Origin: Raillietiella orientalis
Taxonomy: Eukaryota
Reading direction: 5' to 3'
Assembly (NCBI GenBank): GCA_036172245.1
Contig: JAYWIR010000013.1
Location: forward strand, 2,542,001 to 2,606,000
Length of the DNA stretch: 64,000 bases
A program made the translations under genes and the position numbers. Shown here one piece after another: positions 20,332 to 59,126 of this stretch. How positions within the stretch are numbered: the first letter of the stretch is position 1; each line of letters opens with the position of its first letter. A model generated the notes under the pieces. That model was not told the DNA's origin. It worked only from the letters and a program-made list of their open reading frames with translations, and made no database searches.

Positions 20332-20578
20332 AGCGCAGGAGATCGAGAGGATCGCAGGGGGAAGGTTGCTGTGGCAATGCGGCACCCGATACAGCTGGGG
20401 CGTCGCGTTTTTCATTAAGCCGGCGGTCGATGCTGCCGTAAAGGGCGTGCGCTTCGACGATGCCGGTCGTGTTGGCCAGCTGATTCTCAGGTGATCCGAC
20501 ACGAGCGACCATGTCGTAACAAACCTGTACGCCCCGAGCGGTCCTGGCAGGTACCAGGAACGTGCGTCGTTCCTGGAA
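20332..20578 (+). pseudogene. Family C APE fragment (continuation of the element cut at 11380)
   Basis: AQEIERIAGGRLLWQCG..GVAF..RFDDAGRVGQL..NLYAP. Confidence 0.75.
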
Positions 20579-20579
20579 A

Positions 20580-22176
20580 CAGACCGAAGAAAATAATAGG
20601 TCTACTGAGTTCAAAAAACAGTTAGGTGGAAAAACAAAGTTGCTCAGATATTGAAAGGCATATATATAAAGGAGGGAAGGGCAATCAATAAGCCAGATCT
20701 AGATAGAACAACTAGGCTGGCATACAACCTTATATTAGTATATAGTAAGGGAAAAGATTTCCGAAAGGACGTGGCAACGCCAAACCAGCGAAGGAACGAA
20801 CAACCAAGAGATAAAATGGAGTTAAAACGTGCATTAAATCTGTTGAGGGCTGTACTATGTATCATTAAATCTACGTCAAGCGTAGCACTTAATGGAACAA
20901 ATGTGTGCAAACTGTTTAATCAAAAAATTATTAGAAGGAAAACCAATTGGAGGATGGGAGACAGAATATCTGATAGCAATCGCAGGAAGACAAAAGACAA
21001 ACGGATACATCGAGATGATGGCACGGAGACACAACAAGGAACAGCACATTAATAACGGTAATATAGATCGACCGAGGATAATAGAGGACAATGTCAAATT
21101 GCATTGAGAACGGCCAGTATTAGCATGGCACCGGCTACAGACCGAAGTTGGATACTATGAGAGGACTTGTGAAGAAGTAGAAACGTATAATATCACACCG
21201 TGGGACAATATCAACAGGGTATATGTGGATAACAGTGCGACATTACACCACTGATGGCGGCAGGGCAAATCTTGGCCGCAGATAAGGAACATCACGACTG
21301 GCGAGCCTTAGGAATAAAGACAGCGCTATATGACATGCAAAATGACAAGACATGGACAGAGCCAAGTGGAAGTGACTATTGCTTCAAGACTGGTGGGAAA
21401 AGAAATACATTCAAGAAACTTAGAGTTCTAAACTCACCATACAGATACGTGGCAGTAGACATCAGCGCACTGTCATCACATATATGGAGCTATGAAGGGC
21501 TACTGGTCAATGCGGGAACACCGGAAGAACCAGAAATGGAACTGTGGCGCTTAACAGACAACAATGTTGTGGTTATTGTAATAAATGACCGGTTAAATCT
21601 AATACAGGAAACATTAGCTTTGTGGATAGTAATACATCTGCGCTATCCATTATACGACACGTATGAACACTTCACGACCTATAGAATCGGCAACAGGACC
21701 CTTAATGACAGAGAGGGTGCGCCAATAAATTAAGAGGAGATATACAGAAGGACAGCAAGTCTAGTAGATATCCCAGCAAGACCAACAGATATAGTTATCT
21801 TGACAAGTGATAAAGTGGCACGAACAAGGAACATTGGCGGGACGGACGTAGCGATAACAATTGGCGAAAGATACTACCGAGAACCGCCAGATATACAAGT
21901 TAATCACGGGACGGAATTAATAACAAATTGCGTAAGAATGACGATGAACCACGGAGGAAAGTTGACACAACTGCTGAATAACTATTTCCTGCCCATAATG
22001 GCAACGGGCATGAACTGGAGGGAGATAGAGCAGATTGTTGGAACGCTCTGTGTAAGATATCTACCCAGGGAAGAAATAGGAGTAAGCATCGACGGAAAAT
22101 ATCAATACAAGACAAAATATGACCAAGCGTGCAAAAATCCGAGAAGGCAACACATGGCGTGGACACCTAAACTGCA
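20580..22176 (+). other. Endogenous viral element: toti-like dsRNA virus capsid-like fragment (frameshifted)
   Basis: Abrupt shift to A-rich composition; near-contiguous ~500 aa frame (..ETLALWIVIHLRYPL..EEIYRRTASLVDIP..GMNWREIEQIVGTLCVRY) recalling arthropod toti-like capsids. Assigned from memory, supported by the toti-like RdRp piece at 32723. Confidence 0.6.
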
Positions 22177-23270
22177 TGCAGCACGACGGAGGACGGTGGC
22201 GACCGTGCCCTCCAGCCGGTCGTGCTGATCGCCGCCCGCTCGCCGGATCAAGCGAGCAAAGCCGCCAACTTCCCAGCAGTAATGCGGGGAATCGCGTCTC
22301 CTCGTCGTCTGTCCGTGACGTGTTGGAACGTGAACGGAATGCAGAACGAGAAGAGCCGATTAGTAGCCAACGCCCTGCGCCCCTTTGACCTCGCGCTCCT
22401 GCAGGAGATTCACGTAATCTCCGACGAGCAGGCAGCCGAAATCGAGGAGCGCGCAGGCGGAACGCTACATTGGCGGTGCGGCGGTGCACACACCTGCGGC
22501 GTCGCGTTCCTCGTAAGAGGAAAAATGGCGGAAGCGGTGCGTAGTGTTCGTTTCGATGACGACGGACGGATAGGCCAGCTTGTCATCAAGTGGTCAGAGT
22601 CCATCGATCTCGTCGTTACGAACGTCTACGCGCCGAGTGGCTCTCGCTACCTCGAAGAAAGAGTAGCTTTCTTTGGTGAGGTGCAGAGCCAGTGGCTCAA
22701 CAACTCCGGTTTCCAAGCGGCACACCTCATCGCGGGGGACTTCAACGTCCGCCTGCTGGCCGACGATTGGAGCCACCCCAGGGAGCGCCCGCTGTCCATC
22801 GAGATGTGCGCGTCGGTGCACGCCGCCAACTTGATGGTCAGCGAACCTGGAATGGAAACATCTCTCGATCACGTTTTCCTAGATGAAAACCTGCATTCGC
22901 GTGTGGGTAGGAGAGAAAGATTGTGGACTGGGCTTTCTGACCACCACAGGTTGGAGTTTGAGCTCCTTCCGCCAGGCAAGGGGCCTCCGTTGCAAAACTG
23001 GAGGATGCAGGCGGATTGGCTTAGCCATCCGGAGGCTGCAGAGCATCTCCGTGAACACCACCGAGGCTTCGCCATTCATGAACTCGCGGACTGGGACGAT
23101 CTCAAAAGATCTGTCCGCGAGTTCTGCTGCCAATTCCCCTTGTACCGGCTTCCATGCGGTTTCGAAGAGGGCGTGGCCAACAGTAGAGACTTTCTGCAGG
23201 CCCGCACGTTTTCGAGACACGCGGATGTCGGGCGTCTCGCAGAGTACAAGGCGAGGGCCGAGCGCCAGGT
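22177..23270 (+). mobile_element. Family B fragment: ORF1 end, TAATG, APE domain
   Basis: TAATG 22280-22284; WNVNG, LQEIH, NVYAP, AGDFN, SLDH, SDH. Confidence 0.9.
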
Positions 23271-24390
23271 TAGCGCGTTTGATGGCCACGCTGCACGCGT
23301 TGATTGTTGGGCGTGGCGCGACCTTTCCCTTGCCCTTCACCACTTTCGCCGGTGCGGGCGCGGTTTTTTTAACAATTTTTACTTTACGGGTGACCAGCTG
23401 CCAGCCTTCCTCGTCGGCAGTCTTTTCCGGGAGCTCCTGTACCGAGTCCCTTTCCTGCTGCGCGACTTTTGTCGGAGCCGACGGCTGATCCCCTTTTGTG
23501 GGGTTTATCACTATTTTTGCCTTCCCTTCCTTCTTTTGCGGAAGTTCCGGCGTTGGAGCGACGTTTATCGGGCACACCACTTTGGTGTGGCCCTTCGCGC
23601 CGCACGTTGGGCAAACTGCGTCCGGGCACCGCTTTTTCAAATGCCCGAACGACTTACAGTTTCCACAAAATTTAGGTTTCCCCACAAACCAAATGTCGAC
23701 GAACTCGTCGCCAATTTGGAGCTTGTGGGGAAGCTGTACGCTTTCTCGAAGCGTCACGCGCGCGCCTACTCGCCCACTAAAAGCACCGTTCACTCCGAAG
23801 GTGTTGGGCTTTCTCCACATCGCGAAAACGCTTGCGTATTTTTCCAGTTCAGCGCGGATGGCGTTCTCATCCATCCGCACTGTTGTCCCTGTTAGGTGGA
23901 CCACAATGGAGTGGTCCACCGTGTGTGGGAGTAAATTCCTGCCCTCAAATTGTACGGGCGTGCAGAGCATCTTGTGGGTAAGAGCTGCATCCTTGCAGAT
24001 GAGCTCCGCCAACTGCCCTCCGCTCCGTATAGAGAGGCAAAGAATTTCATGGTCGGCAATGCCCATCTCTTTGATGGCATTGCCGAACTTTCTCGCCCTT
24101 AACGGGGAATATAAATTGCCTACCTTGTACAGGAGGGCCGGATTGTAGCCCTCCTGGATGTAGGATTGGATTTCGGCGGCGACATCGGGCGTTTCCGCCG
24201 CTGCCACCGCGCTCCAGGCCCTCGCCGTAGTGGCGGGTTCAGAAGAAGTGGTGGGGCGTGATCCCACCTCCTTTGGCTTGGGAGACGCGGTCTTCCCGCC
24301 TCCCTCACCTGAAACTGCGGCGTTCACAGGCATTTCTGCCTGTCAACGGCCGCGAAACACACACGGAACACCAGAAAATAAAAACTCCCT
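23271..24390 (-). mobile_element. Family C 5' fragment (5'UTR + ORF1, ATG 24333)
   Basis: SYIQEGYNPALLYKVGNLYS; CGNCKSFGHLKKRC, CPTCGAKGHTKVVC. Confidence 0.88.
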
Positions 24391-26079: not shown

Positions 26080-28157
26080 CGTCCTTCGTTGCTCCTCGAG
26101 CTCAATTCCATTCCGTCTTCCTTGTGCGTGGTGCCCACGTACATCCACTAGGACGTTCACGGCGCAAGCGCAGGAGAAGATGGATGTGGAGGCTGCAGCC
26201 GGCAATGGAGTTTCTACCCCGGATGCTCGGCCCGCCTCTGACGCTTGTCTCGCCACCGGCGAGAAGCTTCGCCGCCTTCGTCAAGGCGGCGGCAGCAAAC
26301 GAAGCACCGCCCGACGAAGCGGAGCTGCAGGCATATGCACCCCACTGCTACAAGACTGCACTCTGCTATCAGGTGAGTGCTGCTATCTCCGACGGGGTCG
26401 GAGAAATCCTTTGGGACGAGCTTTTGCGCGTAGGGGTCCGACAGGACGACCTCCTCGCCGTCATGCCGGTTAACGCGCTCGGACACTGGGAGGTGCACTG
26501 CAAAGAGGCATCCCTAGTCCAGCGCCTTCTCCGCACCCCGCTGAACATACGCGGAAAGGAGGTCCTCCCGTCGGCCATGGACCAGTCGTTCGTGGTCCGA
26601 TTGTCCGCTGTCCAGGTGGACATGGACATGCCCAATCGCGTGCTCGTCGGTTCACTTGATGCATTCGCCACGGTGCACGCGCTGTGGGGAGAAGACAATC
26701 CGATCAAAAGGATTGCATCTCTCCACAGCGGACTTGCCATGGCGCGTGTCACTATGGCGGATAGGAGGCAAATGCCTCCGCACTTGCAGGTGGGCGATGC
26801 GATCGTTTACCTTAAATTTGCCGGTCAGCGACCGGCTTGCGGCATTTGCGGTGCAAAGGGCCACCGTCCGTGGACCTACCCTTCACGCAACTGCCGCTAT
26901 TGTAAACAGCTCTGCCACTCCATCAAAGAGTGCGCCGAGCTGACGAGAAAGCGGCAGGCAAAAAGCCGCGAACAATCTACCCCGTCCGCGTCGAAAAGAT
27001 CCCCCGTTGTGCCACGGGAGAAATCGAGCGCGAAGGGCGGGGCATCTTCGAGTGGCGGTCCCGCAAAAAAGGGCGCGGTTGCTTCAGGGAAGCCACCATC
27101 CCAGACAGCCGAGCAGACGGGAAAGATGCCACGTCGCCCTGGGGGCACATCGCCCCCTTCGAAGCAGCCCAACAGTGCGGGCACGCACTCACTGAATGCT
27201 GCTGAACCGTCCGCGTTCACTTGCGCGTCCAGCGGAACACACGGGAAACCGTGCGCAGGCACCCTCGGAGCTGCCTCCGTTTCGCCCGCATCGGCTAAGG
27301 AGCAGGTGCAGGGCGTAACGGGGACGGAGCCGTCTCCCGTCGCGAGCGCGAAACCTGAGCCGTTATCTCCGGCCAAACAATTGAGGGAGGCGTCGGCCTC
27401 CCAGGAGGACGTCCCCGACGCGGGCTGGACTCGCGTCTCCAGGACGCCCACAAAGGGGAAGAAGAAGGTTGACCCTTCAATATTCCCCATCCTTAAGGTG
27501 GGTGGGAAACAAAAGCGAAGCACGCCGAAGAAGGTGCGTACCGAGGTGCGCACTACGGCTGCGTGCTCTCTCTGTCGCTTCGTGTGAGAGGGCGCCTGCA
27601 GAAGCCAAAGCTCCAGAAGCTGCGTTGGCGACTGCGGCGACCCCCGCGCGGGCAGGGCAAGCTTCCACCTGCCGAAACAGAAAGAGACAGGCAAAACGCC
27701 AGTTTCGTGCCAGGCACTCGGACTCCGAGGTGGAGTCCGAGTGCAAACAAATGGAGCGCGCATCCCGGGGTAAGCCGGTAGCGCGCCGGGCTGAAGTGCG
27801 AAAGCACGAGCCTGTTTCCGGAGGAGGTTCCGGCCCTTGCACGGAGCCCGAGGCGATGATTCTCGGCTCCCAGGACTCAGCTGGGTGCGATGTGGCGATG
27901 AACGGGAGCGATTCCGCTTCCCAATCCGCTGTGTTGCCAGCTGACTTCTCGCCGGACGGCGCGAGGAGCACGCCGTCATGTCCGTAGCAGTAATGCGTGG
28001 ACTCGCGTCCGCCCGTCGCGTCCACACGGTCTGATGGAACGTCAACGGACTGCGTGACGCCGACAAGAGGCGGACGGTAGCCAACGCCTTGCGCACGTTC
28101 GCTCTGGTGCTGCTGCAGGAGATACACAGCATCTCCGAACGGCAGGCATCGGATCTG
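26080..28157 (+). mobile_element. Family B-related 5' fragment (ORF1 + start of APE)
   Basis: CGICGAKGHRPW, CRYCKQLCHSIKEC; TAATG 27991-27995; LLQEIH. Confidence 0.85.
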
Positions 28158-28772
28158 GAAGAGCCCATCCGCACAGAACTCAGCAAGTTCACGGAGATTT
28201 ACGCCATATGGCACAAGCCCAACGCCTTCACTTTCAGAGGCGCATTTAGTGGGCAAGTGGCCGCTCGCGTAACACTCCGCGAAAACATACAGCTAACAAA
28301 CTGCAAGTCAAGGACGAACTCGTTGATCTCTGGTACATGGGAAAGGAGAAATACTGCGGGCTGTGCAACACGTTTGGGAATCTGAAAAAGCGATGCCCGG
28401 ATGCCACATGCCCAACATGAGGCGAGAACGGCAACACTAGCGTGGTGTGCCCGAAGAACGTCGCCCAACCACCGTAAACCCCGAAAACACTAGAGGGGAA
28501 GAAGACGGAAAACAATAAACAATGCGACCTCCAGCCATCCTCAAAAGAAGTCATGCATCAGTAGCAGATTTCTCAAAAGGAGACTTCTGAGGCAACTGCC
28601 GACGAGGACGGCAGGAAGACGGTCGTAAATAAAAGCTAAAACATAATCAAAAAAAAACAAAAAATAACTCACAAAAAACAACAAATTCGAATGCGAGTGT
28701 TGCGAAAAAACCCGCGTAAAACACAAAGAAAATTTCGCCGTACAAGGTATTAAAGGAATACCGCTTTGAAAT
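28158..28772 (+). pseudogene. Family C ORF1 internal fragment
   Basis: IRTELSKFTEIYAIWHKPN..; decayed zinc knuckles. Confidence 0.7.
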
Positions 28773-31740
28773 TCAGTGCGTTCTTTCGATCGAGAGTCGA
28801 TCGGCGAACGCGAAACCATCAGCCGGCGCTGAAGCTGCGGAGCCACGATTGGACGTCTTCAGCCGTCGCTCCTGAGTTTCCGTTTTCCCGCGTTTGTGTT
28901 GTCGGTGATGGTTTAGGCAGCAATGCCTGACTCCGTCACCAGTGAGGATCACTGGTGATGGAGTCACCTGACAGTGTACCCATCACTCCATCACCGGAGA
29001 TGGAAGTGGAGGCTCCCGCCCCCACGGATGCGCCCCCGGCCCTACACAGGGCTTGGAACGCCGTGGCTGCCGCACCTACGCCGGCGGCTATGGAAGAGAT
29101 GCACGCCTACCTGGAGGAGGGGTATAACCCGCCCCTCTTATATAAGGTAGGAAATCTGTATTCACCAGAGAGCGCGCGTGCCTTTTCACAGGCGATGCGC
29201 GCTCTTGGCGTTAATAAAGAGGAGCTTCTGGCAATGTCCGTCAGAAGCGGGGTCAATTTGCGGAAGTGATATGCAAAGAGGCAACTCTTGCGAAGAGACT
29301 TCCAAGAACCCCTGTAATGATGAGGAGCCGGAAGCTTCTCCCGGTGACGGAAGAACGGTAGGTGATTATTCACCTGACCGGCATTACGTTCCGCATGACC
29401 AAGGAGGCCGTCCGGAACGAGCTAGATAAATTCGCCACTGTGCACACGCTGTGGGGCAAGCCCACTCCGTTGATTACGACGGGGTGCTTGGCGGCATGGC
29501 TACAGCGAGTCACCATTCGCGAGGGATGCGCGTTCCCGCACAAACTGTGCGTCAACGGTGAATCCGTTGACTTATGGTACGTGGGGAAACCGAAGTTCTG
29601 CGGCTGCTGCAGCAGTTTTGGGCACCTCAAGATGAGGTGTACGAGCGTGCAGTGCCAGTAGTGCAAAGAAACGGGACACAATCGTCATCTGTGCCCCCAA
29701 AACATAGTCCCTGTCGCGTCCTCCCGAAACGCGACAAAGCGCGCGGCTAAAAAACGCAAGCTAGAAGCGCGAGCTGCAGCTAAGGAGGTAACCTCCGCCA
29801 CCAAGGCGAAGGCCATCTCCGAGACCACGGTAGAAAACGCAGAGAAGGTTCAGGGCGATGGCCAAGAGCCAGGTTGGCAGGTCAACTCCAAAAAAAAAAT
29901 TCCTAAAAAGGAAAAGAACGTCCCGAAACGGAGCGAGACCGCTCCGCGCCGCGAAAAAACAAAAGGTTGCAAACTCGTTGTTGAGCGGATTCCCATCAAC
30001 GAGTGAGGCACTCTCGAACTCGCTGCTGCCACGCTCAAACCTCCGATGACAGTCAACAAGGAGGGGAGTGAGGCGGTGGCGTCCGTCACCGAGCCCACGC
30101 TCGATGACGTAGCTTTCCAGAGAGCGGCCCAGGCGCTCGCTGACTCGTTGCAGTCGGCCCTTCCAACGCTGGCAAGACCGTAAGGCGTCCGGCTTCCACC
30201 CAGGAGTCGGTAACTTCCGTCACCGAGGTGGAGGCCGGAAACGCAGCTTCCATGTCAACGGACCCAGCCGGAAGACGGCGCAAGTCCAAGAATCCCCGGA
30301 AGATCGTCTCCCCAGTCGAAGGGGAAGAGATGGCTTCCGTAAGCGATGGTGCCAAGAGCGTGGGAAACTCTGGGGACCCGTCGCCCTAGAAACTCCCGCG
30401 CCGCGACACGGAGATGGAGGGGGTAGAAGCCGTTGTCGAGGTGCCTGAGGTGTCTGACTCGGCAGTCGTCCCCATGGACCTTCCCAGCACCTGCCCCGCT
30501 GCAGGTGCCGCAACGCAACATTCCCAGCCATAATGCTGGCAATTGCCTCTCGCCGTCTTCTGCTGACCGCCTGTAGGAACGTCAACGGGGTGAGCGACGA
30601 TGGCAAGAGACGTGACGTGGCCGCCACCCTGGCATCCTTCCATCTGATGCTGCTGCAGGAGATCCACGTGATCTCCGCAGATCATGCCCGGGAGATCGAA
30701 CGGATCTCGGGTGGGCGGCTGCTGCTGTGTCGCCATCCTCCTTCGGCCAGCCATCGAGGCCACAGTTTAGGGTGTACGGTTTGATTCCGCCGGTCGCGTG
30801 GGCCAGCTGACTCTCAGCTGGTCCGACTCCATCGACCTGGTCGTCAGCAACCTGTGCGCTCCTCGCGGTAGCGAAGCGTCAAAGGTCAAGGCAAAAGAAT
30901 TCTACCTTGCCCTGAGACGTGATTGACTGTCCGAAGCAAACGTTCGCAAAGCGCACCTGATCGCAGGTGACTTCAACCTGCGCCTGCTGTCAGGTACGCC
31001 GGATACACAGAAGGACCGCGTCAACGAGTTGTGCGCAGAAATGCGCACACGCAACTTGTTGGCCGCAGATACGGACATGGATCGCAGCACCGATCACGTG
31101 TTTCTTGACCAGCACCTATGCTCTCGCGTGGGCAGGTGCTGCAAGTTACCGTCCGAGCTGTCCGACCGTCGCCCGATCGTGATCGAGGTTCATCCGCGCA
31201 ACAGGGGTCCCCCTTGTCAGCGTGGCTATTGCCAGAGGACTGACTAAAGCTCCCGGACGCGGCGTAACATCTCCGCGCGTTCATACGGAGCTTCAGGATG
31301 CGGACACTCCAGGACTGGACCGCTTTAAGCGGTCGGTCTAGGTGTTCTGCGACCAGTTCCCTCTCAACCGCCTACCTGAGAGATTTGGGGAGGAAGCACG
31401 TAACGAAAGTTGCAACCTTCAGGCCCGACGTTACGCAAGAATCCCCGATTTTCGCAGGTTAGCGGATTATCGAGCGGGAGCCGAGAGGCAAGCCTGGCAA
31501 TCCGGGTCGGCCAGCTTGCTGGACGACCAGGGTCGAGAACACTCGCCTCCTGCTCAGAAGCAAGGGATTGTGCGCAGCTTTTACTCCTTCGTGTAGCAAG
31601 AGCGCATCCGAAATGGGATGTCGCATGACTCCTTCAGAAAGATGCTCCAGCGATTGGGGATGAGAGGACCCTCGACGAACCTTTCACGATGAGCGACTTC
31701 ATCTCGGCCATCAGAATGCTAAAGAGACGCAAAGCTCCTA
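28773..31740 (+). mobile_element. Family C LINE, 5'UTR through APE and linker, decayed, 3'-truncated
   Basis: ATG 28923; AYLEEGYNPPLLYKVGNLYS; TAATG 30531-30535; LQEIH, AGDFN; ends at KRRKAP. Confidence 0.85.
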
Positions 31741-31775
31741 GCTAAAATAATTTCCCACGGTGTCGGATGATTACT

Positions 31776-31807
31776 GCGCAATCTGGGTAATGCTGATCAG
31801 GTTGTGC
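31776..31807 (-). other. CRESS-DNA virus origin-like stem-loop with nonamer CAGCATTAC on the strand opposite Rep
   Basis: Stem gcgcaatctg/caggttgtgc (10 bp, two transition mismatches); 12-nt loop whose reverse complement contains CAGCATTAC (one mismatch to CAGTATTAC); TATA-like tatataaaa and Rep ATG (31911) downstream. Confidence 0.65.
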
Positions 31808-31996
31808 TCAAGAAAACTATGCAGTTAAACTATGCAGTTAGGCAGTATATAAAACCACCGATTACATCCGCACCAGTCCTACCTCCAGTGAATTAGCTCA
31901 TATTAGCACCATGCCGTACGCACTATTCTTCAATTTATGCCTCACTGTGTACCTACAGGGAAAAAGAATTCAAGGCCATCAAACAGTGTTGCCGAT

Positions 31997-43485: not shown

Positions 43486-43514
43486 ATTTCAACGTTCGCT
43501 TTCATGGGAGACGG

Positions 43515-44960: not shown

Positions 44961-45379
44961 ACTGGACATAAAACTCGTTGTTAGTAGGTATATTTAGTGC
45001 ACACTACTATCAAGCCATCTTCATTTTCTGGTGCATCAATTCTGAATAACCTTCCCTGAAAAATTCCCGTATCGAATGGTACACTCCTAGCCTCAGTGAT
45101 CATACGATAGAAGCTCGAACTCAGAAACAAAAATAAAGCAATACAAGCAATGTACGAAAAAATGCATCACTCAAAGAAAGGTGCACGAATGAGTGGAGGA
45201 GCTTACGAATGACACAATGAGTGCACCAGACGCAGACAGTCCAGACCACCTGACTGTGGCAACAGTAAACCATGTCGAAAAAGTAAATCCTCTCGTTCAA
45301 TGCAACAAACGTACGCTGCCACTACTGAAGCAGTTTACACAGTCTACATATTGCACATAATGCGCACCACCATAGAGAA

Positions 45380-46360: not shown

Positions 46361-46744
46361 GAAGCATTGATAAGACTTTTCATCACAATTGATTCGATTC
46401 TGTAAAATGTATAGTGATATGCAACTCTTGTCTTCATGCAAGATTGTCACCCACAAATATTTCCTTACTAATACATCACTAAACATTAGTAAGCTATGGC
46501 AGCCGTATGGCTGTAGAGTCGGGTAGCCGCTATCTCCAGGTAGCGGCGTAACGACACAACCCGGAAATGCACTCTTTGAACGGTAACATACGGTTCTACA
46601 CTGAGGAAAAGTGGAGTCGTTTAGAAACCGCTCAAGAGTTGCACCACTATGCCTGGGGCACCGAGGCGGTAAAAAACACACAAATGTGAGTGTTCATTTC
46701 GTGCTACTCGCTGTGGTTACCGGTTGCTCCACAATGTAAGTGCA

Positions 46745-47670
46745 GCAATGGGCTTCTGAGAAGCTTCAGGGTGATGAAATTTGATGGTGAAAGCACTTGC
46801 AAGTTAATACATAATAATAATGAGTAAATTTCATTTGAAATGGCAAAATAGTAACTCCAACCAGGCTCAAACACTGTTTAAGTTCCTTCATGGACACAAA
46901 ATAACCATGGAACCAGATATCCTCCAAAGAATAAATCTACTGAAATTTTTGCTTCATTTTGTGCTCCAGCATCAAATTTTTCATTGTTTTCTTATTCCAT
47001 ACTGCTTCAAGAGCTCTCTCTAATGGCACTGTTTACCTGTAAGGCTTGCATTATTCCCTAGAAGAAGGATACCAACAGGGTACTCAATATAATTCGCAGT
47101 TCAGTAGGATAACTAAGCAACAGCTTTCCAACTTATGATTAGAAGCACAATGCTTAGCAAGAAGGAAATATTGGCTTTACTGCATGGAAATAAATGTGCG
47201 CTCAACTTTCAAAGTGCAAAGTATGTCACAAAACACCAAGAAGAAAAGATATTAAATCAGCATAGATACAACACATCATGTTCAAAAGGATGCACTTTAA
47301 GAGCAAAAGACTTTGATTTTGCTTCAAACATTCAACAACTGCAGTCTTTCTACCATCATAATAATCATGAGAATAATTTCAATAATTACCAGCAATCAAT
47401 TGAAAACTTGCAATTTGAAATTTTTTTGTGCAACAATCTTACAGTACACTTGTTTCTTCAATGCATCAAATTCTACTCAAAACTATAGTGCTGCATAAAA
47501 TGCTGTACTGAGATACAATCATGGAAAACTCCGTAGTACTCTCTTGTTTCCAAACTATCCAGAGAGCAGTGGAAACAACAGAATAAGAGCAATGCAATCG
47601 TTAAAGAAATCGTCGAAATCAGAAACCATAGAAGTACTTCAGTGATATCAATTTCAATAAAAAAACGCAT
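46745..47670 (-). pseudogene. Decayed AT-rich ORF divergent from the phenuivirus N gene (ambisense NSs-like or M-segment start)
   Basis: ATG 47670 lies ~30 nt inside a terminus-like inverted repeat; hydrophobic N-terminus; many stops; product not recognised. Confidence 0.4.
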
Positions 47671-47755
47671 TTAATTTTCAAACTGAAGATGTTTAGATAC
47701 ACACACAAAGATCTCTCAGTTTTGAAATATTGCAGAGACTGAATTATTAAGAAAA

Positions 47756-48542
47756 ATGGACAAATTGAACCCGGAGGAAGTAGAAAAATTAGTCAAAGAA
47801 ATTCAATCAACTTTGGTGTTTAATGATGAAATGGTAACTTCCATCAGACAAAATATAAATGATTTTGTTTATGAAAGTTTTGAGCCTAAAAGAATGGCTG
47901 TTATGATATGGCACACGATTCAGGGGTATGCTCTTAAATCTAAAAAAGAGGATATCTTGATAATGATTATGTTAGCTTTGGAAAGAGGGAATAATTTAGA
48001 CAGCATGAGAGAAAAGATTAGTGAGCTGGTCTTGATGCTCTTTTTAAAACATACAAGTTCGTGTCTAACCCCGGTAAGAGCAAGGATGCAACAATGCTTT
48101 CAAGAGTGTCATTGTTCTTTCCTTGGTTGACTTGTGAGATGTGTTCTCACATATTATCACATACAGTTTCTGCCTATCTCTTAGACAACTTAATATCTGC
48201 CATTTACCCTAGGCAAATGATGACAAGTGCATTTGCAAATAGGATACCCATAGAAACTGACAATGCAGAAAAGAGCACTGGAATTGATAAGATAGATCTG
48301 CTTATCTTTTACAACAGCTTGAAGTTACCCAGACAGTTTCAAAGATATTCCCAAATACAACCAACACAGATCTAATCTCTAAAATTCGGGTTTATACAGA
48401 TTCAGGTGAAGCAAATAATTACATTCCCAATGCTGACAGAGTACCCTATATGATTAAGTGAGGTATTTTTGACGAAAATTGGACTCTGTCTACTGATGTG
48501 GTCAAAGCAGCATCAGCTTCAGAAAACGAACTTGCATTTTGA
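47756..48542 (+). pseudogene. Endogenous viral element: Phenuiviridae (phlebo/tenuivirus-like) nucleocapsid N, full length but frameshifted
   Basis: DFVYESFEPKRM, DILIMIMLALERGNN, TMLSRVSLFFPWLT, YPRQMMTSAFA, GIFDENW..VVKAA match phlebovirus N motifs; genome-terminal ACACAAAG at 47703-47710. Confidence 0.85.
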
Positions 48543-51099
48543 GCAAATATGACAGGGCTTTCATCCCTTCTTGTATTCTGTTTGTCTAGAGTGATAAAAA
48601 ACTATCAATGAATGTCCTAAAACATAAAACATGCCACATCATTACTAATTCCATATTCGAATTTCAAAGCACTTTCTTTGCCTTGGCACCTCCAAAAATA
48701 GGCAGTCACTCTTAATAATAACAAACCTGCTGCATTATCGATTAACCTAACACGAATACCAGAATGTCAAAAGTAAATTACAAATACCAGAATTTACCTT
48801 TTTCACATTTTTATGACAAAACACATTAGTACCTAGTCTGTACAGAGTTCACTGAGCATGTGACTTCCCCACTGTTACCCTCTCATCTTTTTGTTTTTAC
48901 TCTTTGAATACTCTTCCTAACTCTACTTTTACCTCAGCAAGAACCGAGTCTTCAGATTAAAAGAGAACTTCTCACTTCCATAAATCCTCGTTTAATTCAA
49001 TCTTAATTGTTTGGAGATTTTACTTTTTTTTATATTGATATTATCAGAATGCACTGAAGCAATTCTGGGGCTATAGGCAGAAAACCAGCAACCTATTTTG
49101 CTGACATCCAAAGTTCCCTATTAGCAATCATTTACAACAGTCCAATCAAAGTATACAAAAATTCTGTGTTGAAGTGAATGTTGCATAGATTTTTGTAACC
49201 ATTATCTACCAAATTCCACAGATACAGAAAGGGTACGGGTTGACGAAATCCATGGGAAAAAAAAGTGAATAAAACTCCTAAAACGACACAACCCATCTTA
49301 GGAGCGCGTTCTTTCAGGAGACACTAATCAAAAGTACTAAATCAAGTACTTCCCTTGTAACCAATTATGCAATAAATTAGCAACATTAACATGTATGGTG
49401 TCGGGGCACCATTCTTGTTATCTACTGTCAATCCCACTGAATCGTTTTAAAATACGGAATATCATGAAATGACGTGCTATCAATCAAACCCTTTTCACAA
49501 ACCTGCGAGTCTTCATCAGTTTCTTCCACTGCCGCACTCATAAGGTTTTTTTTTTCCCCTCTCTCTCCCGTTCTGACTTGCGAATACGCACGCTTGAAGC
49601 TTCTCACGAATCGAGCGGATGCACAGCACATACTGTGCAATTACAACAGCAGACACTCGCAGAGCACTAATGCACGAAGTGACACAATTCCACAAAATCA
49701 GTTTGCTGCCAAACGGAGGGAAACACCCAATTTACACGGCATATGGACGACGGTACACTCCCAAAGGAGAAATCCGAAGCACTCTGCACCGCGCCTTCGC
49801 GTGGCAAAAATCGCTCCATCCGCTCTCTCACAAAAAATGACGAACGCTCACTTGAGTACGCAGGGTTGCCAGTAGTGGTTTATGGAATCCCGCTAGAGGC
49901 CTTCCAAAATCGGCTATTTTCCAAAGAAGGGAACTCCTGATTTGAATACCTAGGAATTTATTATTACTATTATGCAATCATTTGATGTCACTCAATCTCG
50001 AATCCCACAGTACAAACATGAAATGCAAGCTGACGGTATGTGCGGAACGAAGCAAAGTTTCTGTTCATTTCGTGATATTCATATGGACTCCTCAGCTTCC
50101 TCACCTATGATATGAGTGAATTCAAATAATCAATAATCAACAAGAAGGTGCAGCTATGGGCAAAATATACCTCCGTAAGTAATGAATTCGAATGAATCGA
50201 GCCATGCATTCGATAGGAGTCAGGATCACTACATCCGTTTATTCGAGCGGTGTAATTCCTTTCCACGAAAAGAGATCGCTCAATGGCTCCGAAGAGCCGA
50301 TGATTAACTCTCGTATATGTGCTGCAATGAGCGAGAAAACACTTGCGCCAGAGCAGATGAGGCGACGGAAGCAGCTGACTTCTGTAACGACTTCGCTGAA
50401 AAGAACCATGGCAATTACAAAATCCAGGAAAACCTCTTGTTCGCATTGTGAAAATTCCAATTTCTTCCTAATTTGGTTACTCTTGCTGAGGCACAGGAGA
50501 TTCCCGTAAGTCTCGGCAAGTTGGCATCGACAGTTTCGAACCCCCATTCTTTTCTGCATTTCAATCGAAGCACTGCTTGCAGGTGCGCTGGTTGCGGTTT
50601 CCCCTTCCAACGCTACTGCCAAAAAAGGGAAAAATCGACGTAATATGCAGGCATCCGTCAGGACATGCTGAAGTTGGTTTGAAATACTCCCTAACTGTCG
50701 TGTTTCCGCTGTGAACGAATGCTCGACTTAAAAGGCAAGGGAATGTCATTCATCAACAGACGTGCATTCAGGTTTCCAGCTTCCGAAACATCAGGACTTC
50801 TCGGAATCGCAGCCTGTAACCATACTTCTCGGGAAAAGCATCTGCGTCCCATGGTCACACAAATAACATACAATGGCCACATTTGATATGCGCATATCCC
50901 ATACTGGCTTACCTGTGACAAGTGGAACTGGTTACATTTATCGCTCTTCACGTTGTCTCACTTGGCCAGCAATAAATGTTGGTACCTGACTTCCAGGGGT
51001 CCGGATGGAAGTGCAGAAGTCAGCATGGTCTTCCGAACCTAGAATCGCATACTGCAATGGCTAACCAAGGACCGAATTTTCACTTCCGTGCCGAACGCC

Positions 51100-52250
51100 A
51101 GCGCCGTTTGGAACGCTTGGATCGGAGAGTCTTTCTTTGTCGCCCTGGTTACACGCATGGCGTTTGAAGTTCACGGGAAACATCTTCCGTAGCGCTCCAT
51201 CGTCAACATTCAGGAATCTCTCAGAAAAAAAAAAAAAACAATTCGGAAATCTCTCACGGTGCCTTAGAGACCAGCTCTCTGGATGTGCATCCAACAAACG
51301 TTCCAACCAATCTTTGCGCAAGGACAGAGGAGGAGCCATCCTTGCTAGTCGAAAATCCTGCCTAGGTAGCGTGCAACACCGCTGCGGCAGCGATTTTTGC
51401 GTGTCCTGATAAGGCAAGTATCTTAATAGGAACGCCATTGCAGTGGGCGTGCAGTACACTCTGGGAACTCCCAACCTTCCCGGTCCGTCGCATGGTGAAG
51501 ACAAAGTGGAGAGCATGGAGCTGGAGGCAGAGGCATCGTCAGAGAAGGCAACCAATACGACGGCTAAGCACGCAGAATGGGCAGCATTTTACAAATGCCA
51601 ACGCTCCGAGACTGAAAAAGAAGAAACCCAGAGGAAGGCGCTCCTTTCTCTCACCGCGCATGCAATCCAGCCCCTCTACCCCATTCCTTCCTTCCAGGGC
51701 AAAAAAACAAACGGAAGTACCGAAGGAATCCCCACAGTTGCGCGGAAGTACGTTGCCAGCAACACACTTTGGCTGCCTACGGAGCAAGTGTCCACCCGGC
51801 AGTAGTAAAGCCGATGGAAACTGCCCACACAGAGGAGCCCGTTCCCCCTCCCTTCCCCCCCCCCCCCCCCCCGAAGAAGCTGAAGAGCAGACCGTCCCTA
51901 CAGAAACGCGCGTGAGGATAGAGCATCTGCGCGTGAGGGAGACCGAGAAATCTATCCCGGAAGAGAGGGGAAAGCTCGTCTTGGCCACCGACGACGTGCT
52001 CGCGGAGCGGAGGGAACAGTCGATTGCCTCGCAGATGGGAATCCATCTTGGAACGGAAAGCGCTGCTCCCAATGGAGCGGAAGAGCAAAGACACGCTCGC
52101 GCTTCCGTGGCTCAGCTCGAGAACTTTGCCTCCATGGATACACCCACCGCAACGGAGAGCCAGAGCAGCACAACATTAGACACCTCCAAAGACGACAGCC
52201 TTGAGTGAAGACGTCAGCGGAACAGCACTCTGGCAAACAACCCTAGCAAA
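51100..52250 (+). pseudogene. Possible very decayed LINE ORF1 remnant
   Basis: Low-complexity Lys/Glu/Pro-rich frames directly upstream of ORF2 remnants; no intact motif. Confidence 0.25.
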
Positions 52251-54914: not shown

Positions 54915-54939
54915 CCTTCCGGGAAGTATTCCAAGGATG

Positions 54940-56312
54940 GGCCTCCGGAGGCGTTCACCTGTTAGTGGAGAACATGTACGGACCGCTATTAAAGAAGCAA
55001 ACTTTTGCAAGGGTCCACATGGACCTTATCAAGAGCAAGATGACGGTGAAGGACGTTCTTATGCTGGTGATGGACCTCGACATCAGCTTGGACGGTGATC
55101 GGCACCACGGAGTGCTCACGGGCATCTGACGTCGGCTGGCAGAGGAGGTCGCTCTCACGTGCGCGGGGTAAACTTCATCCCAATCGACTACGTGGTGAAC
55201 CCGAAGCGCCTGAGCAGCCGTATGCAGAGGACCCGGAAGCTGGACACTGGAATCCATCCTAAGTTCCGTATGTAGGCGAAGAATCTCAGAAGGGAGCACG
55301 CTAAGCCTCGGGAGGTACTCATCTGCATGTCCGAATGGTGCGAGTGCTATCCTCCGTCCCAGCGCTTCGTGGAGATCATCCTGTCCACGACACCTTCGAG
55401 CGTGTGGTTGACTGGGACACCTTGAAGCATAGAATCCACATCTGTTCAAACATGGAGTACGGCGAAGGGAGGGAGATTCACCATCTCAACATATCTCCCA
55501 CTCTGAGATTAGGAAGTGTATCAGAGACGATCTTTCGATGTCAGCGTGAATAAGGACGTTTGCAAAAAAACGACCTCCAAACCCACATCTCTGACGTCCA
55601 TTGCTCAGACCGTGACTGCCAATTTTCAAAGGGGATGAAGGAAGCCTTCCCGTGCACCGAGCGGTCCCACAGAAGGAGTCAAGAGTGGCAAACGGTCACT
55701 CACCACGGAACCACATCTCCGTCCTAAACTCGGATGCAAAGTGGATGGTGAAGATCTGGAACAAAGGAATGAGAAGAACCATGAACTTCGTGATCACTCC
55801 TGCACAGATGTGTGCCATGCCTGGCAGACGCATGTAGAATAACGTCAAGTGTGCCGAAAACATCAAGATGAAAAGGTGTCCACCAAGAGGTTCAGGGAGA
55901 TCCCCTGAACCTTACGCTTTTCGTCATCTACATGGAGTCCTCATCACCTAAGAAGGCCGGCCATTTTCCAAATCTGGAAGAGCTGCTGCAACTCATCTAG
56001 TCAAAAGAGTTCGAAGATGAGTTTCCAACACATACCTCCATGCTCAGAAAGCAGTTCGGGAGCGTGGCAGGAAGGTGGAAGCTTCTGAAAAAGTTCCTGA
56101 ATGTTTTCGTCTCTCCTTCGTCGAATCTGTCACAGCTGGATCAGATCTGCGATCATCTGTAGGAAAAAGGACTGTCCCTTGGGAGCCGCTGCTGATTTTC
56201 AAGGGTATAACCCTGGAAGAAGAAACCATCACTCACCTGACCTACGCCGACGATCTACTGTTGGTTATGTCCCACAAACAGGAGCTGGTGGATCGAATCT
56301 CGAGTGTGTCCT
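54940..56312 (+). pseudogene. Decayed family A-like ORF2 (APE to YADD) containing a foreign insert at 55972-56194
   Basis: ENMYGP, VVDWDTLKHRIH, ISVLNSDAKW, FVIYME, KGIT..THLTYADDLL. Confidence 0.75.
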
Positions 56313-57221
56313 AGGAAGAACCGCAACCCTTGCCTGTAGTTGGAGGTTTCCTGAAGATCCTCTTCCAATCCTTTTTTAAAAGCACGTCATCCAGCTCCGT
56401 AGGTTTTGAAGACCAGTGCCTATTGAGGAATGCGGAACATGCATTTCGTCGGTGGTGAGATATTAGGATGACGTCCTAAGAGGATTCATGTGCGATTCGG
56501 GAATATAGGTTTCCACCGACCCGAATACCAATGAAAAACTCCTTGTTTCCTATAGTGAAGCTTCCATAGTTGAGGTCATTTGAGTAACGGACAGGAGCTA
56601 CAGCTAATCTGTTAAAGCAGTTCTCTGACAAGCATCACAATTTTGCAGTGTAGTACATGCGTTCCTTGTGGAATGGTAGCAACACATATATCAGTGGATT
56701 GCTTGAAGAAGGTTGGAGCAGAATATCAGAGATTTCACGCAATGCCTGCTTCTGCTTTCAACGGAATTATGAGCAGAAAATTTTCCACAATGTGTACATT
56801 GAGGAGAGCGACATGGCACTGACGTGCTTGTTTTCCACCATTCGAAGGGCTCGTGTGCCGGATTCCTCCAGTGTATCCATTTCTTGTTTGCTAGTGGGCT
56901 ACACAAAAATGGTAGTCACTTTACTCTGAAAGGATGAAGGAAAAGCATCTGCCAACTTTTAAGGTGCTTTTAGATATGCGCAAAGTGTTTAGCAGCAAGA
57001 AGACGTGTGTCGTTTTATTACTTCCGGTTTGCATCATTTGCAGCTGTACTGTCACCAAGTGAAAGAAAGTTTTCCCTGCAGACTGAATGGCGTAAATTTG
57101 TTGGATGCTGTTTCGATAGCGACAGATTTTCCATCCGACTCTGCCATGGCATTTGTTAGGAAACCAAATAATAATGAAAGTCCACTAGAGTGTTTGATTG
57201 TGGCGCCACACTTGGTTTCAC

Positions 57222-57790
57222 TACGAGAAACATTGCCACCGATGTCTTCCGCATCCAGTGCCAAGATCGAGTGCTGGACACGTCGGAAGGAAAGCAACAC
57301 TACGCTTCCCACTTCGAACGAGAGTAGCTGTGCTCGGAAGAGCAGGAAAGTAAGCTCGGACATGTGAGAAAGAAGCTGAGCACCGAGCAGCAGGTGCAGC
57401 TCGAAGAGGCAGCCCCCGCGGAAGTAGGAAGCGCGTTCGCAGTGCTGCGGAAGGATGTGGCGTGCCCATCTCCCACTGTCAGCGGCATCTGAGCGCCTAC
57501 AGTTGCACGAGCTGAAGCTCTGCATCCAGCAAGAGAGGAGACTTCCGGAGTCGTTCCGCGGGAGCAGGATGAGATTTCTGACGAAGCTTACCCAGTGGAG
57601 GCTGATCTCCATCCTCAACTCGGACTCCAAGCGGATGGGGAAGATCTGGGCAGAACGTTTGAGGAAGATCGTGACATCGTCCAGCTTCCTCACCCAGACT
57701 TGCGCGCTGCCTGATCGGCTCCCGAATAACAACGTAAAAGTGCGCCTTCGGATACAGCTGCTGCGTTGGTTCTCGGAAACCTCCAGGGTC
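57222..57790 (+). pseudogene. Decayed family A-like ORF2 fragment
   Basis: RNIATDVFRIQ; RLPESFRGSRMR..QWRLISILNSDSK. Confidence 0.7.
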
Positions 57791-59126
57791 AAAAGGTGAA
57801 GGTCACCTCTTGCAAGAAACGAGCATCACTCCTCATGGGAGTTTCTTTCGAGACGACTTCCTCCAACGTTCTCAAAGTGTCGCTCATCCGCTGCTCGAAA
57901 TTTCATAGAGAAAGCTGCTTGTCATTTCAGAGTGGAAGGATTCGTTCGCTCACAGCTTTTAGCAGGAGCATACGAGATGCATGCATGATGCTGATCTCCT
58001 GCTATGAGACTTTGAAAGCTCTTCCCCAGGTGATCAGCATTTCCATTAATGCTTTGGAGCTTTTAACGAATTGAAACCGTACGTGAAGCTCGTCCTTCTT
58101 TCGCTTTGCCTCTTACGCCGCGCAAGTCCGATCCCCGGTTTAGGACAAACAGAGCTCTTCCAAAGCCTCGGCATGCAGTGAGGAAACTGAAATCATCGAG
58201 AAGCTCTGCGCTCTCCCCCAAACCCCAAGTTGTGCGAATGCCAGCCTGTGCGTGATGCTTCAATCGAAGACGGACAGCAAGCAAAGAAGCGGAGCCACAC
58301 GTTATTTGCACTGCGGTCATCAGCGGCCAAGGGAGCTCGTGCACTCACCAGATAGAGCGCCTCCGAAATCTGGATCCAGATTTCTTCCGGACGAAAAAGG
58401 CAAGGAGCGAAACGACAAAAACACAGGAGCGGGCGGTAACATCTTTTGCGAGCATTCTTTGAGCCTATTCTATACGAACGGTGAGTGTCAGCTGCTTTCC
58501 TTTTCGCGAAGGCGTTCGGGCGTGAAGGCTGAAGCGCACAGGAAAATCAGAAGTGAATCGCCAGGCTTTATTGCGGATTTGCTGTTCTTGTCATGCACAC
58601 ACGGGAACACCGAACAAGGGGACAGGGTTATGTTCGGGCCAAACATGGAGGCCGTGAGCGAGTCGTGAAGCGGACGGATGAGCGGCAAACGCGTCATCTG
58701 AGGCCTGCGTTGTCTTCTGAGCTGGGGATGGATCACTTCACTTCCAGGAGCATGCGGTATTCGTCGTCGGTGGGATGAGTGGCCAACTGTTTTGCTGGAA
58801 TAAGAAAGAGAATGTTCTACCAGGCAACGTGCGCCATCTTTCTTCTGATTGAAACCCTCCGCCCTCAGCGAATGCTCGGCGCTCGAGCATTCGTTGCCCG
58901 CTTTGGCTGTTCGCAGCACGCATGCTCATGCGAGTTCTCCGGAAATGGAGAGCCTAAGGGCGCGGTGACAGGAACGGGCGACCGCCTCGCAAAAATCGCA
59001 GACTGGAAATTTGGTCACGTCATTGCTGTTGCACGTCCGCGCCATCCAACTGCTTGTATGGGCCGCCGTGCATTTGCACACAACTCTTCTTACTGTTCGC
59101 AAGCGAACCTCGCCGCAGGAAGATAA

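Follow-up and report, generated by a model that had tools for sequence, protein, structure and literature searches.

The DNA analysed here, referred to as the window, is a stretch of 64,000 nucleotides from Raillietiella orientalis (contig JAYWIR010000013.1, positions 2,542,001 to 2,606,000); all positions given below are those of the window. The 38 kb between 20.3 and 58 kb are, almost throughout, a nest of decayed LINEs of the L1/Tx1 type, which hosts at least five decayed or tiny virus fragments from three unrelated virus groups. The self-nesting LINE cluster proposed in a preliminary description of this DNA was recovered both by Pfam domains and by tblastn with the window's own LINE ORFs. 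The latter search, with fragments merged by hand, places 17 LINE fragments on the plus strand and one on the minus strand (20.3-57.8 kb), counts that are not independent if several fragments belong to one broken element; all five viral pieces lie on the same plus strand. Dense transposon fragments in a single prevailing orientation, as found here, are a feature by which unidirectional piRNA clusters are recognised. LINEs are the only transposons recognised in the window. Pfam analysis covered all 136 ORFs of at least 100 aa in 18-60 kb, 141 short ORFs of the non-LINE intervals, the six-frame read-through of three AT-rich stretches, and 48 of the 93 ORFs of this size beyond that interval. The ORFs and the read-through of AT-rich stretches gave no LTR element, and no host gene was recognised (136 of 136 ORFs in 18-60 kb, 48 of 93 outside).

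The LINEs belong to the L1 superfamily, as indicated by an APE-type endonuclease (EN) followed by a reverse transcriptase (RT) in ORF2. LINE C (37772-43163, plus strand; identified by Pfam and tblastn) is near full-length, with ORF1, EN, RT and C-terminal part, and contains frameshifts; it matches Exo_endo_phos (E 3e-14) and RVT_1 (E 3e-22), the latter domain being found also in copy A2 (E 2e-26). Of three ORF1-type ORFs, one passes the zf-CCHC cut-off of 20.8 bits, with 24.0 bits (20.1 and 19.6 in the other two); zf-RVT, carried by many of 67 relatives, is weak in the window LINEs (E 0.004, below cut-off). The closest relatives are 28-33% identical to the window LINEs. The sole minus-strand LINE fragment of the region (23569-24342), found by tblastn with the window LINE ORFs, is ORF1-like and features CCHC knuckles. 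There are LINE pieces that are out of order or rearranged, and different families are fused: at about 28165, for example, the start of an EN is joined to mid-ORF1.

The toti-like capsid gene previously noticed was confirmed, at 20.6-22.2 kb, by ORF1 homologues, found both by phmmer and by a profile. This fragment, T1 (20585-22175, plus strand, GC 0.42), has 39 homologous proteins at E<=1e-3 in an exhaustive phmmer search (best 2.7e-25); two of them, from Totiviridae sp. and Bactrocera minax totivirus, are labelled "hypothetical protein 1". The ORF1 profile matches three ORFs of the fragment (20886-21104, 21233-21730 and 21734-22225; E 5e-11 to 3e-29), as well as PDB entry 9thi_A, subunit A of Omono River virus (E 2e-6). 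T1 is decayed, with 8 stops in 520 codons of one frame plus a frameshift; the profile supports two blocks of it, 20898-21071 and 21272-22102, which are not collinear, as some 250 positions of the profile are absent between them. Its outer limits were set by the end of EN homology, a shift in composition and the start of LINE D homology. A second ORF1 fragment, T3 (46399-46690, plus strand), is added here to the earlier description: it is found by six of ten ORF1 queries in tblastn (best E 4e-5) and by the profile (E 4e-10), and spans the same conserved ORF1 block as 20886-21104 of T1. Since T1 and T3 share no nucleotide similarity beyond chance words, when compared by blastn, they are considered independent. 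Homology to both ORF1 (capsid gene) and ORF2 (RdRP_4 polymerase, see below) indicates a toti-like dsRNA virus of the arthropod type.

T1 is enclosed by LINE pieces on the same strand. On its left lies an endonuclease fragment (20330-20581, about aa 87-168 of the EN domain; tblastn with window LINE ORFs, 50-52% identity, E 1e-20), while the 5'-truncated LINE D (22176-23271; 85.7% identity to LINE C 39469-40567; Exo_endo_phos E 7e-12) directly adjoins it on the right; no target site duplication (TSD) was found around T1. Direct junctions without TSD between segments, the orientation common to all of them, the fused families and out-of-order domains described above, and an 11-bp word, ACAGACCGAAG, present at the EN/T1 junction and again inside T1, would all be compatible with mosaic cDNAs: the EN fragment, T1 and LINE D, as well as the LINE-flanked insert U1 described below, may have been made at once by a reverse transcriptase that switched between LINE and viral RNA templates, and integrated as chimeras. 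Such an origin is nevertheless improbable: deletions between neighbouring same-strand copies give the same patterns, chance alone would give about 0.4 11-mers of this kind in 1.8 kb (an estimate) where two are seen, and a search for the outer TSD of a chimera found none. Such mosaics would resemble the hybrid DNA of transposon and virus that is described in infected insects.

A CRESS virus piece, comprising origin and Rep, had also been proposed; the Rep part is supported, while no canonical origin is present. Pfam Viral_Rep matches ORF 35362-35616 with 27.3 bits (cut-off 26; E 4.3e-6) over only 27 residues; a custom Rep profile, built from sequences chosen for the same motif, gives E 6e-14 over 47 residues. 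The match falls in the right half of the fragment (35420-35580, plus strand; Pfam-supported part about 35431-35511), which carries the HUH endonuclease motif II of CRESS Reps (GTPHLQGY). The left half (31745-31977, plus strand), weakly supported when taken alone, is formed by presumed intergenic DNA and then by the beginning of Rep, read from a putative ATG at 31911; by itself it matches no profile. Only about the first 70 codons of Rep are contained: motif I is frameshifted and ill-defined, motif III and the SF3 helicase were not found in the fragment, and no Walker A motif of a Rep helicase was found anywhere in the window. A stem-loop with a NANTATTAC loop was not found next to rep; NANTATTAC occurs once in the window, at 49960, versus 1.68 expected, and folding of 31735-31915 gives a z of -0.96. 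A 13-nt tandem repeat at 31814-31839, in the left half, is the sole origin-region feature seen. Immediately before the Rep motif, the AT-rich DNA at 35.29-35.40 kb is 3'UTR of LINE A and not a viral origin.

The two halves are separated by LINE A3 (31997-35400, plus strand), a family-A element with about 84% identity to copy A2, whose 3' end was set by alignment to two sister copies. In line with the 5' truncation and the TSDs of variable length that mark L1-superfamily LINEs, A3 is truncated within EN and flanked by a 19-bp TSD, ATCAAACAGTGTTGCCGAT at 31978-31996 and a right copy at 35401-35419, with 18 of 19 bases the same. A3 split the Rep fragment, leaving this duplication; in this one mapped LINE target no sign of site specificity is seen. 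Of the two, the LINE is the younger, so that here a LINE entered a virus fossil (the CRESS piece), and not the reverse. The source of the CRESS piece is a DNA virus, for which a reverse transcriptase is not needed.

Inside A3 lies a 342-bp fragment of a toti-like RdRp (ORF2; 32723-33064, plus strand, GC 0.41), free of stops in its 114 codons. Seven of eight ORF2-type ORFs from toti-like contigs of IMG/VR match it (best E 3e-14), as does a profile (E 6e-26), in agreement with the polymerase fragment reported earlier; the same queries are themselves recognised as Pfam RdRP_4 in seven cases out of eight. The insert corresponds to ORF2 sequence that precedes the catalytic palm motifs: these motifs are absent from it, and it has no RdRP_4 match in Pfam. 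The perfect TSD already described is indeed there: the 12-bp CATCCGCGAAGA is found on both sides (32711-32722 and 33065-33076). CATCCGCGAAGA is present once in each of the sister copies A1 and A2, where the site is empty, and in two contigs of DNA run X1 position 32710 is followed directly by 33065, 12 letters at the joint fitting either side. Because A3 splits Rep and the RdRp piece lies inside A3, the order of events is CRESS first, then LINE A3 with its 19-bp TSD, and the RdRp piece, with its 12-bp TSD, last.

The RdRp piece shows the marks that LINE-type integration at a staggered cut leaves, here within a LINE. It is the only one of the five viral pieces to show the TSD of a LINE-made processed viral copy, of the kind of endogenous bornavirus-like N elements (EBLNs); the poly(A) or mRNA-like 3' end of such copies is lacking, as the insert, internal to ORF2, ends in GGGAAGAAGA. 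Transcripts of toti-like dsRNA viruses are not polyadenylated. Given the missing poly(A) and the internal position, DNA inserted by repair of a staggered break would look no different. These junctions also bear on an assembly artefact or contamination, with viral reads wrongly joined to host repeats. The region is repeat-rich, and only one public run has even 6% of the words of 43.2-52.5 kb; yet the precise TSDs have matching empty sites in the same window, the viral pieces show decay and are broken up by LINEs of the host, and the window contains no N letters, so that this origin is hardly credible.

The phenuivirus nucleocapsid gene suggested earlier is borne out by Pfam, above the curated cut-off, and by solved phlebovirus nucleoproteins. 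The gene (N; 47756-48372 from its ATG, plus strand, GC 0.35) contains at least one frameshift and covers profile positions 2-154 of 224: Tenui_N (cut-off 25 bits) matches ORF 47726-48127 with 26.3 bits (E 6.9e-6) and ORF 48025-48372 with 29.0 bits (E 1e-6), and the PDB matches are phlebovirus nucleoproteins 4j4x_A (E 2.4e-7) and 4csf. For the C-terminal third, Pfam analysis of the short ORFs in the non-LINE intervals gave no confirmation. N and T3 both lie in an AT-rich island of 7.5 kb (43815-51350, GC 0.40) without recognised transposons, more than 2.5 kb from any recognised LINE, and no TSD was found for either. The statement that most inserts abut or lie inside LINEs holds for three of the five pieces, but not for these two. 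Of the further coding-like inserts listed in the preliminary description, U1 (56582-57364, plus strand), located between two family-A-like LINE fragments, is stop-depleted (5 stop codons versus 15.1 expected); none of these inserts was recognised as viral, and U1 has no match in Pfam, Atlas (best 0.81), a word-indexed protein search, the toti profiles or elsewhere in the window.

Similarity to proteins of non-retroviral viruses, significant for all five pieces, their joining to host or transposon DNA and their decay (LINE junctions, TSDs, stops and frameshifts, the RdRp piece being without stop) are those of non-retroviral endogenous viral elements (EVEs), and the homologies show the pieces to be viral. 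Toti-like viruses account for at least three separate events (T1, T3 and the RdRp insert), a CRESS DNA virus and a phlebovirus-like N gene for one each. Viral fragments of such kind are rare in genomes, and the label "hotspot" rests only on this general knowledge.

The reading that we consider probable, if not strongly so, is a one-directional graveyard of L1-superfamily LINEs, with repeated uptake of virus pieces, which may serve as a source of antisense piRNAs. RNA-virus pieces would have been copied and inserted in trans by the LINE endonuclease and reverse transcriptase, by target priming and possibly with template jumps, generating LINE-virus-LINE mosaics; the CRESS piece would have come in as DNA. 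We propose that pieces accumulate here because insertions in such a locus are tolerated. Unidirectional EVE clusters in Aedes, and clusters bearing EVEs in ticks and mammals, suggest by analogy that transcription from the minus strand would probably yield precursors of antisense piRNAs here.

The same decay might reflect a neutral junkyard: LINEs, and now and then viral cDNA or DNA fragments, would build up unselected in repeat DNA poor in genes and in recombination, with no small RNA and no defence role. Every piece is decayed or tiny, the LINE fragments are rearranged and out of order, no host gene was recognised, and the CRESS piece was itself destroyed by a LINE. This is still somewhat unlikely: the strong single-strand layout of LINE and viral pieces is the pattern reported for transcribed unidirectional clusters (PMC7161354), and such fragments are described as enriched in piRNA clusters in every animal group studied (PMC6580184, PMC4574747).

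At the opposite extreme, a dedicated acquisition may be imagined, in which LINE target-primed reverse transcription prefers the cluster and, much as CRISPR acquires spacers, adds new viral RNA to a small-RNA locus that is inherited. The RdRp piece, inside a LINE and with a LINE-like TSD, would fit, as would T1 and U1, sandwiched by same-strand LINE fragments, the lack of LTR elements in the Pfam analysis, and the sharing of one strand by LINEs and viral pieces, as in unidirectional piRNA clusters. We regard it as quite improbable, however, as a TSD is found for one piece out of five, poly(A) is lacking in the RdRp insert, the CRESS piece came from DNA and was there before its LINE, and N and T3 are far from LINEs; moreover, the two known targets (Rep gene and LINE RT) share nothing convincing that would be a sign of self-targeting, and nothing shows a preference over other loci. 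There is similarly little likelihood that L1/Tx1-type LINEs, and not LTR elements, are the writers of a viral archive, placing fragments preferentially in a same-strand nest read antisense as piRNA precursors. Non-polyadenylated viral RNA fragments would then be captured by poly(A)-free priming and template jumps and, if this were true, a LINE family would at the same time supply the acquisition step for an inherited memory of viruses.

The graveyard favoured here may be compared with several known systems. L1-mediated chimeric retrocopies arise by template switching; the junction at 22175/22176, where a copy of foreign RNA would be joined on the same strand to a LINE truncated at its 5' end, is similar, but no outer TSD or poly(A) of a chimera was found. 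EBLNs are whole-mRNA copies with poly(A) and TSD, whereas the RdRp piece is an internal fragment, without poly(A), from a dsRNA virus. What would be shared, according to the account of Parrish et al. (2015, PMC4574747), is the LINE-dependent capture of RNA-virus sequence: EBLNs are there made by L1 and located in mammalian piRNA clusters, and a heritable, CRISPR-like, retrotransposon-dependent RNA memory is already proposed. For Ixodes scapularis NIRVS, Russo et al. (2019, PMC6580184) report a location in piRNA clusters and a two-fold enrichment of I, R1 and L1 elements nearby, an association established statistically over flanks of 5 kb. In both cases viral fragments stand close to non-LTR elements, and one Ixodes scaffold is described with three virus groups; here the footprint is at base level, as a TSD lies within a LINE and the events can be ordered by their nesting. 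In Aedes, as reported in the same paper, the EVE partners are mainly LTR elements. The flamenco-like EVE cluster of Aedes aegypti, for which a single antisense transcript and phased piRNAs are shown by Aguiar et al. (2020, PMC7161354), differs from the present candidate locus in that only LINEs and also a ssDNA (CRESS) fragment are found here. The two are alike, as far as that report describes, in being repeat-rich and intergenic, in carrying transposon-virus hybrids on one coding strand, and in holding several virus families side by side. A viral-fossil hotspot is of an already known kind; a role as a small-RNA immune archive would be plausible, and this idea is in print (Parrish 2015; Russo 2019; Aguiar 2020).

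At least five real integration events, involving three unrelated virus groups, fall within a 28-kb portion of a LINE-only, one-directional nest. The window is eukaryotic, without any N, and its GC content lies mostly between 0.52 and 0.61, with AT-richer patches at 20-22, 44-50 and 56-58 kb. When 13 of its own LINE ORFs were compared with it by tblastn, almost the whole of 1-43160 proved LINE-derived, together with parts of 52.5-57.8 kb. At least three families (A, B/C/D-like, others) are present, each with an ORF1 carrying CCHC knuckles, an APE endonuclease and a reverse transcriptase. All 136 ORFs of at least 100 aa (stop to stop) overlapping 18-60 kb were analyzed by Pfam, which found LINE domains and a viral nucleocapsid domain only: RVT_1 is matched in three ORFs, Exo_endo_phos in two over the cut-off and in two more weakly, and zf-RVT weakly. 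A six-frame Pfam analysis of raw stretches, with X at stops, returned Tenui_N and weak RVT_1 only. The Pfam scans, which outside 18-60 kb covered 48 of the 93 ORFs of at least 100 aa, those lying outside LINE bodies, revealed neither LTR elements nor an integrase or a DNA transposase; Rfam and tRNA searches gave no matches. All 67 relatives found for the family-A ORF2 are distant, with 28-33% identity for the top ones; the set consists of L1-type elements from fishes, plants and a lizard, many with zf-RVT, so that "L1/Tx1-like", as the elements were called in the preliminary description, is a fair label.

Between 20.3 and 57.8 kb, 17 LINE fragments lie on the plus strand and one (23569-24342) on the minus strand. 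The count was obtained by merging tblastn matches by eye, includes a LINE 5' fragment at 43430-43812, and was corrected for matches from the antisense tail of the "D" ORF, which are in truth plus-strand ORF1 pieces. Upstream of 20 kb LINE orientation is mixed. Here, a 6.8-kb inverted duplication (1-6762 and 13369-20134, 90.5% identity), made of LINE A and about 1.2 kb of common flank, brackets a family-B LINE; it is clipped by the window start, may extend further, and could form a long hairpin transcript. At 27945-28633 the start of a LINE endonuclease domain runs, around 28165, into the central part of a same-strand LINE ORF1, an out-of-order fusion of a kind that template jumping produces, as do deletions joining adjacent copies. 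The GC-rich segment 58100-64000 contains many long ORFs on both strands, with no Pfam family and no likeness to the window's LINE ORFs.

The first viral piece, T1, is a 1.6-kb AT-rich segment on the plus strand (~20585-22175), recognized by exhaustive phmmer and by an ORF1 profile. In one frame, 520 codons contain 8 stops where 34 would be expected. T1 has no match in Pfam, in a PDB sequence search or in a word-indexed protein search (286-910 aa range); exhaustive phmmer alone found relatives, 39 proteins at E<=1e-3, 14 of them at <=1e-10, the best at 2.7e-25. Pfam assigned no family to the 25 of these 39 that were analyzed. Ten relatives were looked up and four are named: "hypothetical protein 1 [Totiviridae sp.]", the same title for Bactrocera minax totivirus, a Hermetia illucens genome protein and a "hypothetical protein" from JGI. 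A profile built from 16 toti-like ORF1s (profile A1, distinct from the LINE copy A1) matches the PDB chain "Omono River Virus AK4 strain Subunit A" (E 2e-6), and ORF1 is therefore the capsid gene of this virus group. The profile matches the ORFs 20886-21104, 21233-21730 and 21734-22225, and pulled 10 toti-like contigs from IMG/VR, whose ORF1s in turn match the window by tblastn at 21233-22105 (8 of 10, best E 1e-21) and at 20988-21218 (4 of 10). The two ORF1 blocks of T1 are non-collinear, about 250 profile positions being absent between them. T1 directly adjoins LINE sequence on both sides, an endonuclease fragment to the left (20581) and the 5'-truncated copy LINE D to the right (22176), on one strand throughout; no target-site duplication (TSD) was found around it. 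A perfect 11-bp direct repeat, ACAGACCGAAG, occurs at 20579-20589, exactly at the LINE endonuclease/T1 junction, and at 21137-21147, in the gap between the non-collinear blocks. It could be a TSD, a microhomology from a separate event, or chance, its frequency being near chance expectation.

A second toti-like piece belongs to the polymerase gene. Of eight ORF2-type ORFs from the IMG/VR toti-like contigs, seven are Pfam RdRP_4, and seven match 32642-33118 by tblastn (best E 3e-14); our own ORF2 profile reaches E 6e-26. Pfam is blind to this piece in the window ORF because the match is confined to sequence ahead of the catalytic palm, and an RdRp motif scan gave nothing usable. Two further tblastn matches, of the L004 ORF1 on 32771-33040 (E 0.001) and of an antisense ORF of L004 on 62183-62389 (E 0.008), were taken as chance. 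The piece lies within A3 (31997-35400), a family-A LINE copy which can be aligned to its sisters A2 (13369-20134) and A1 (1-6762, inverted); a block of 342 bp, 32723-33064, is the exception. The matches on the two sides of this block share 12 bases, in A1 as well as in A2: CATCCGCGAAGA stands on either side of the insert and once each in A1 and A2, and has only these four copies in the window. The perfect TSD claimed for one viral insert is thus borne out. The empty site is also found in two contigs of X1, a public sequencing run of DNA, which join 32710 to 33065, the 12 letters fitting either side; these contigs most likely represent other family-A copies, and what they confirm is therefore the empty site rather than a polymorphism. 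Poly(A) is absent from the insert, whose GC content is 0.41 versus 0.53 for A3. A 293-codon open frame (32639-33517) spans the whole insert and continues into out-of-frame LINE sequence; insert and TSD together measure 354 bp, a multiple of three, and the LINE frame stops at 32736.

A3 also splits the remnant of a CRESS virus. Pfam Viral_Rep recognizes ORF 35362-35616 (E 4.3e-6; 27.3 bits, the cut-off being 26) in a stretch of 27 residues surrounding the HUH motif. With a profile made from 63 environmental Reps, gathered by motif scan, the match lengthens to 47 residues, at an E of 6e-14 that is inflated because these Reps were selected by that very motif; a protein search of the Rep ORF in IMG/VR gave one dubious locus only, and a Walker A motif scan nothing usable. 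The 3' end of A3 was fixed by alignment to A1 and A2. Right after it, and right before the truncated 5' end, stands ATCAAACAGTG[T/G]TGCCGAT (31978-31996 and 35401-35419, 18 of 19 bases identical). The Rep frame enters this 19-bp duplication from the left (31.94-32.0 kb) and leaves it on the right; the Rep fragment was therefore already present when A3 landed in it, and the sequence of insertions is CRESS fragment, LINE A3, RdRp piece. The preliminary description had assigned both an origin and Rep to this virus, of which only Rep stands. What immediately precedes the Rep motif, the AT-rich 35.29-35.40 kb, is 3'UTR of LINE A and no viral origin. The true upstream DNA of Rep, 31745-31910, contains a perfect 13-nt tandem repeat, with neither a canonical nonanucleotide nor a significant hairpin (z -0.96).

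The 12-bp TSD around the RdRp piece and the 19-bp one around A3 are alike in kind. The footprint may come from a DNA fragment inserted at a staggered break; the best explanation is that LINE endonuclease and reverse transcriptase acted on a viral RNA lacking polyadenylation. Such an event agrees with the acquisition role proposed for the LINEs. The CRESS piece, in contrast, is older, derives from a DNA virus and was broken by a LINE, so that LINEs are not simply "writers": the locus takes up DNA-virus sequence too, and LINEs destroy older viral pieces.

Two more viral pieces, T3 (toti-like ORF1) and N (phlebovirus-like nucleocapsid gene), lie 1.07 kb apart on the plus strand of a 7.5-kb AT-rich island (43815-51350, GC 0.40). 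T3 (46399-46690) is matched by 6 of 10 ORF1 queries in tblastn and by the profile (E 4e-10). It is the same conserved ORF1 block as 20886-21104, with different residues, and blastn between T3 and T1 gives chance-level short words only (best E 1.4); T3 is therefore a separate event. Toti-like capsid and RdRp pieces, as originally reported, are both present. For N, Pfam Tenui_N (224 positions, cut-off 25 bits) is matched at positions 2-76 by ORF 47726-48127, with 26.3 bits, and at 84-154 by ORF 48025-48372, with 29.0 bits; phlebovirus nucleoproteins of solved structure are further matches of the former ORF (4j4x_A, E 2.4e-7; 4csf), in agreement with the phenuivirus N gene first suspected. The gene opens with the ATG at 47756 and carries one or more disrupting frameshifts; its last third obtained no confirmation, and no relatives were found in IMG/VR. 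The rest of the island, quasi-ORFs included, gave no identification by Pfam or by similarity within the window. Among public sequencing runs the island returned no RNA run and a single DNA run, X1 (share 0.06); its contigs give good coverage of the LINEs, poor coverage of the island and zero in the N bin, and are uninformative on presence or expression.

Within the island, ~45141-45411 shows a very high summed X1 contig depth (347 in bin 44880-45543 versus 0.4-4 in its neighbours), with many loose contig ends starting at 45376; a short repeat of high copy number is the probable cause. Unrecognised retro-copies, lying on opposite strands, may have left as their tails a stretch of about 25 T and two stretches of 14 A at or near the island edges (43313-43337, 44350-44367, 51222-51238). 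At the right edge, a K/R/E/S-rich ORF of 280 codons (51366-52205), with a long C-run inside (51845-51875), is possibly a LINE ORF1 tail, with no detectable similarity to other ORF1s.

Among the additional coding-like inserts, one is depleted in stop codons. U1, a 1-kb insert between two family-A-like fragments (56270-57294), has 5 stops in 261 codons of a plus-strand frame against 15.1 expected, as few as in 0.15% of shuffles before six-frame correction. It has no match in Pfam, the toti profiles or the rest of the window, nor in a protein search of the 130-415 aa range; its plain 124-aa ORF scores at best 0.81 against the Atlas, a lead only. The GC-rich "coding-like" ORFs outside U1 are LINE ORF1s or antisense LINE frames. 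No convincing TSD was found around T3, N, U1 or the island edges.

The locus records past infection of the host lineage by toti-like, phlebovirus-like and CRESS viruses. It brings dsRNA, negative-strand RNA and ssDNA virus types together in one LINE-only, one-directional cluster, whose order is legible base by base, and its poly(A)-less, TSD-flanked RdRp fragment is a rare direct footprint of dsRNA-virus sequence entering a genome. If small-RNA data were obtained for the host, it would make a compact test case.

That piRNA clusters rich in transposons contain viral fossils is established for mosquitoes. A flamenco-like EVE cluster of Aedes, as outlined in PMC7161354, features a single-strand arrangement of transposon and viral pieces, and here likewise LINEs and viral pieces share one strand. 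Because of this match, minus-strand transcription and antisense piRNAs may be inferred for the locus, by analogy. Bornavirus N copies made by LINEs in mammalian piRNA clusters are described, along with an explicit CRISPR analogy, in PMC4574747. The general idea, linking viral fossils, small-RNA loci and retrotransposon enzymes in a CRISPR-like manner, is thus published, and the gain is an example and detail of mechanism, not a new principle. Compared with these systems the locus is a new example, uncommon for its LINE-only context, the CRESS fragment in the same nest, the readable nesting order, and the TSD-flanked internal fragment of a dsRNA-virus polymerase gene.
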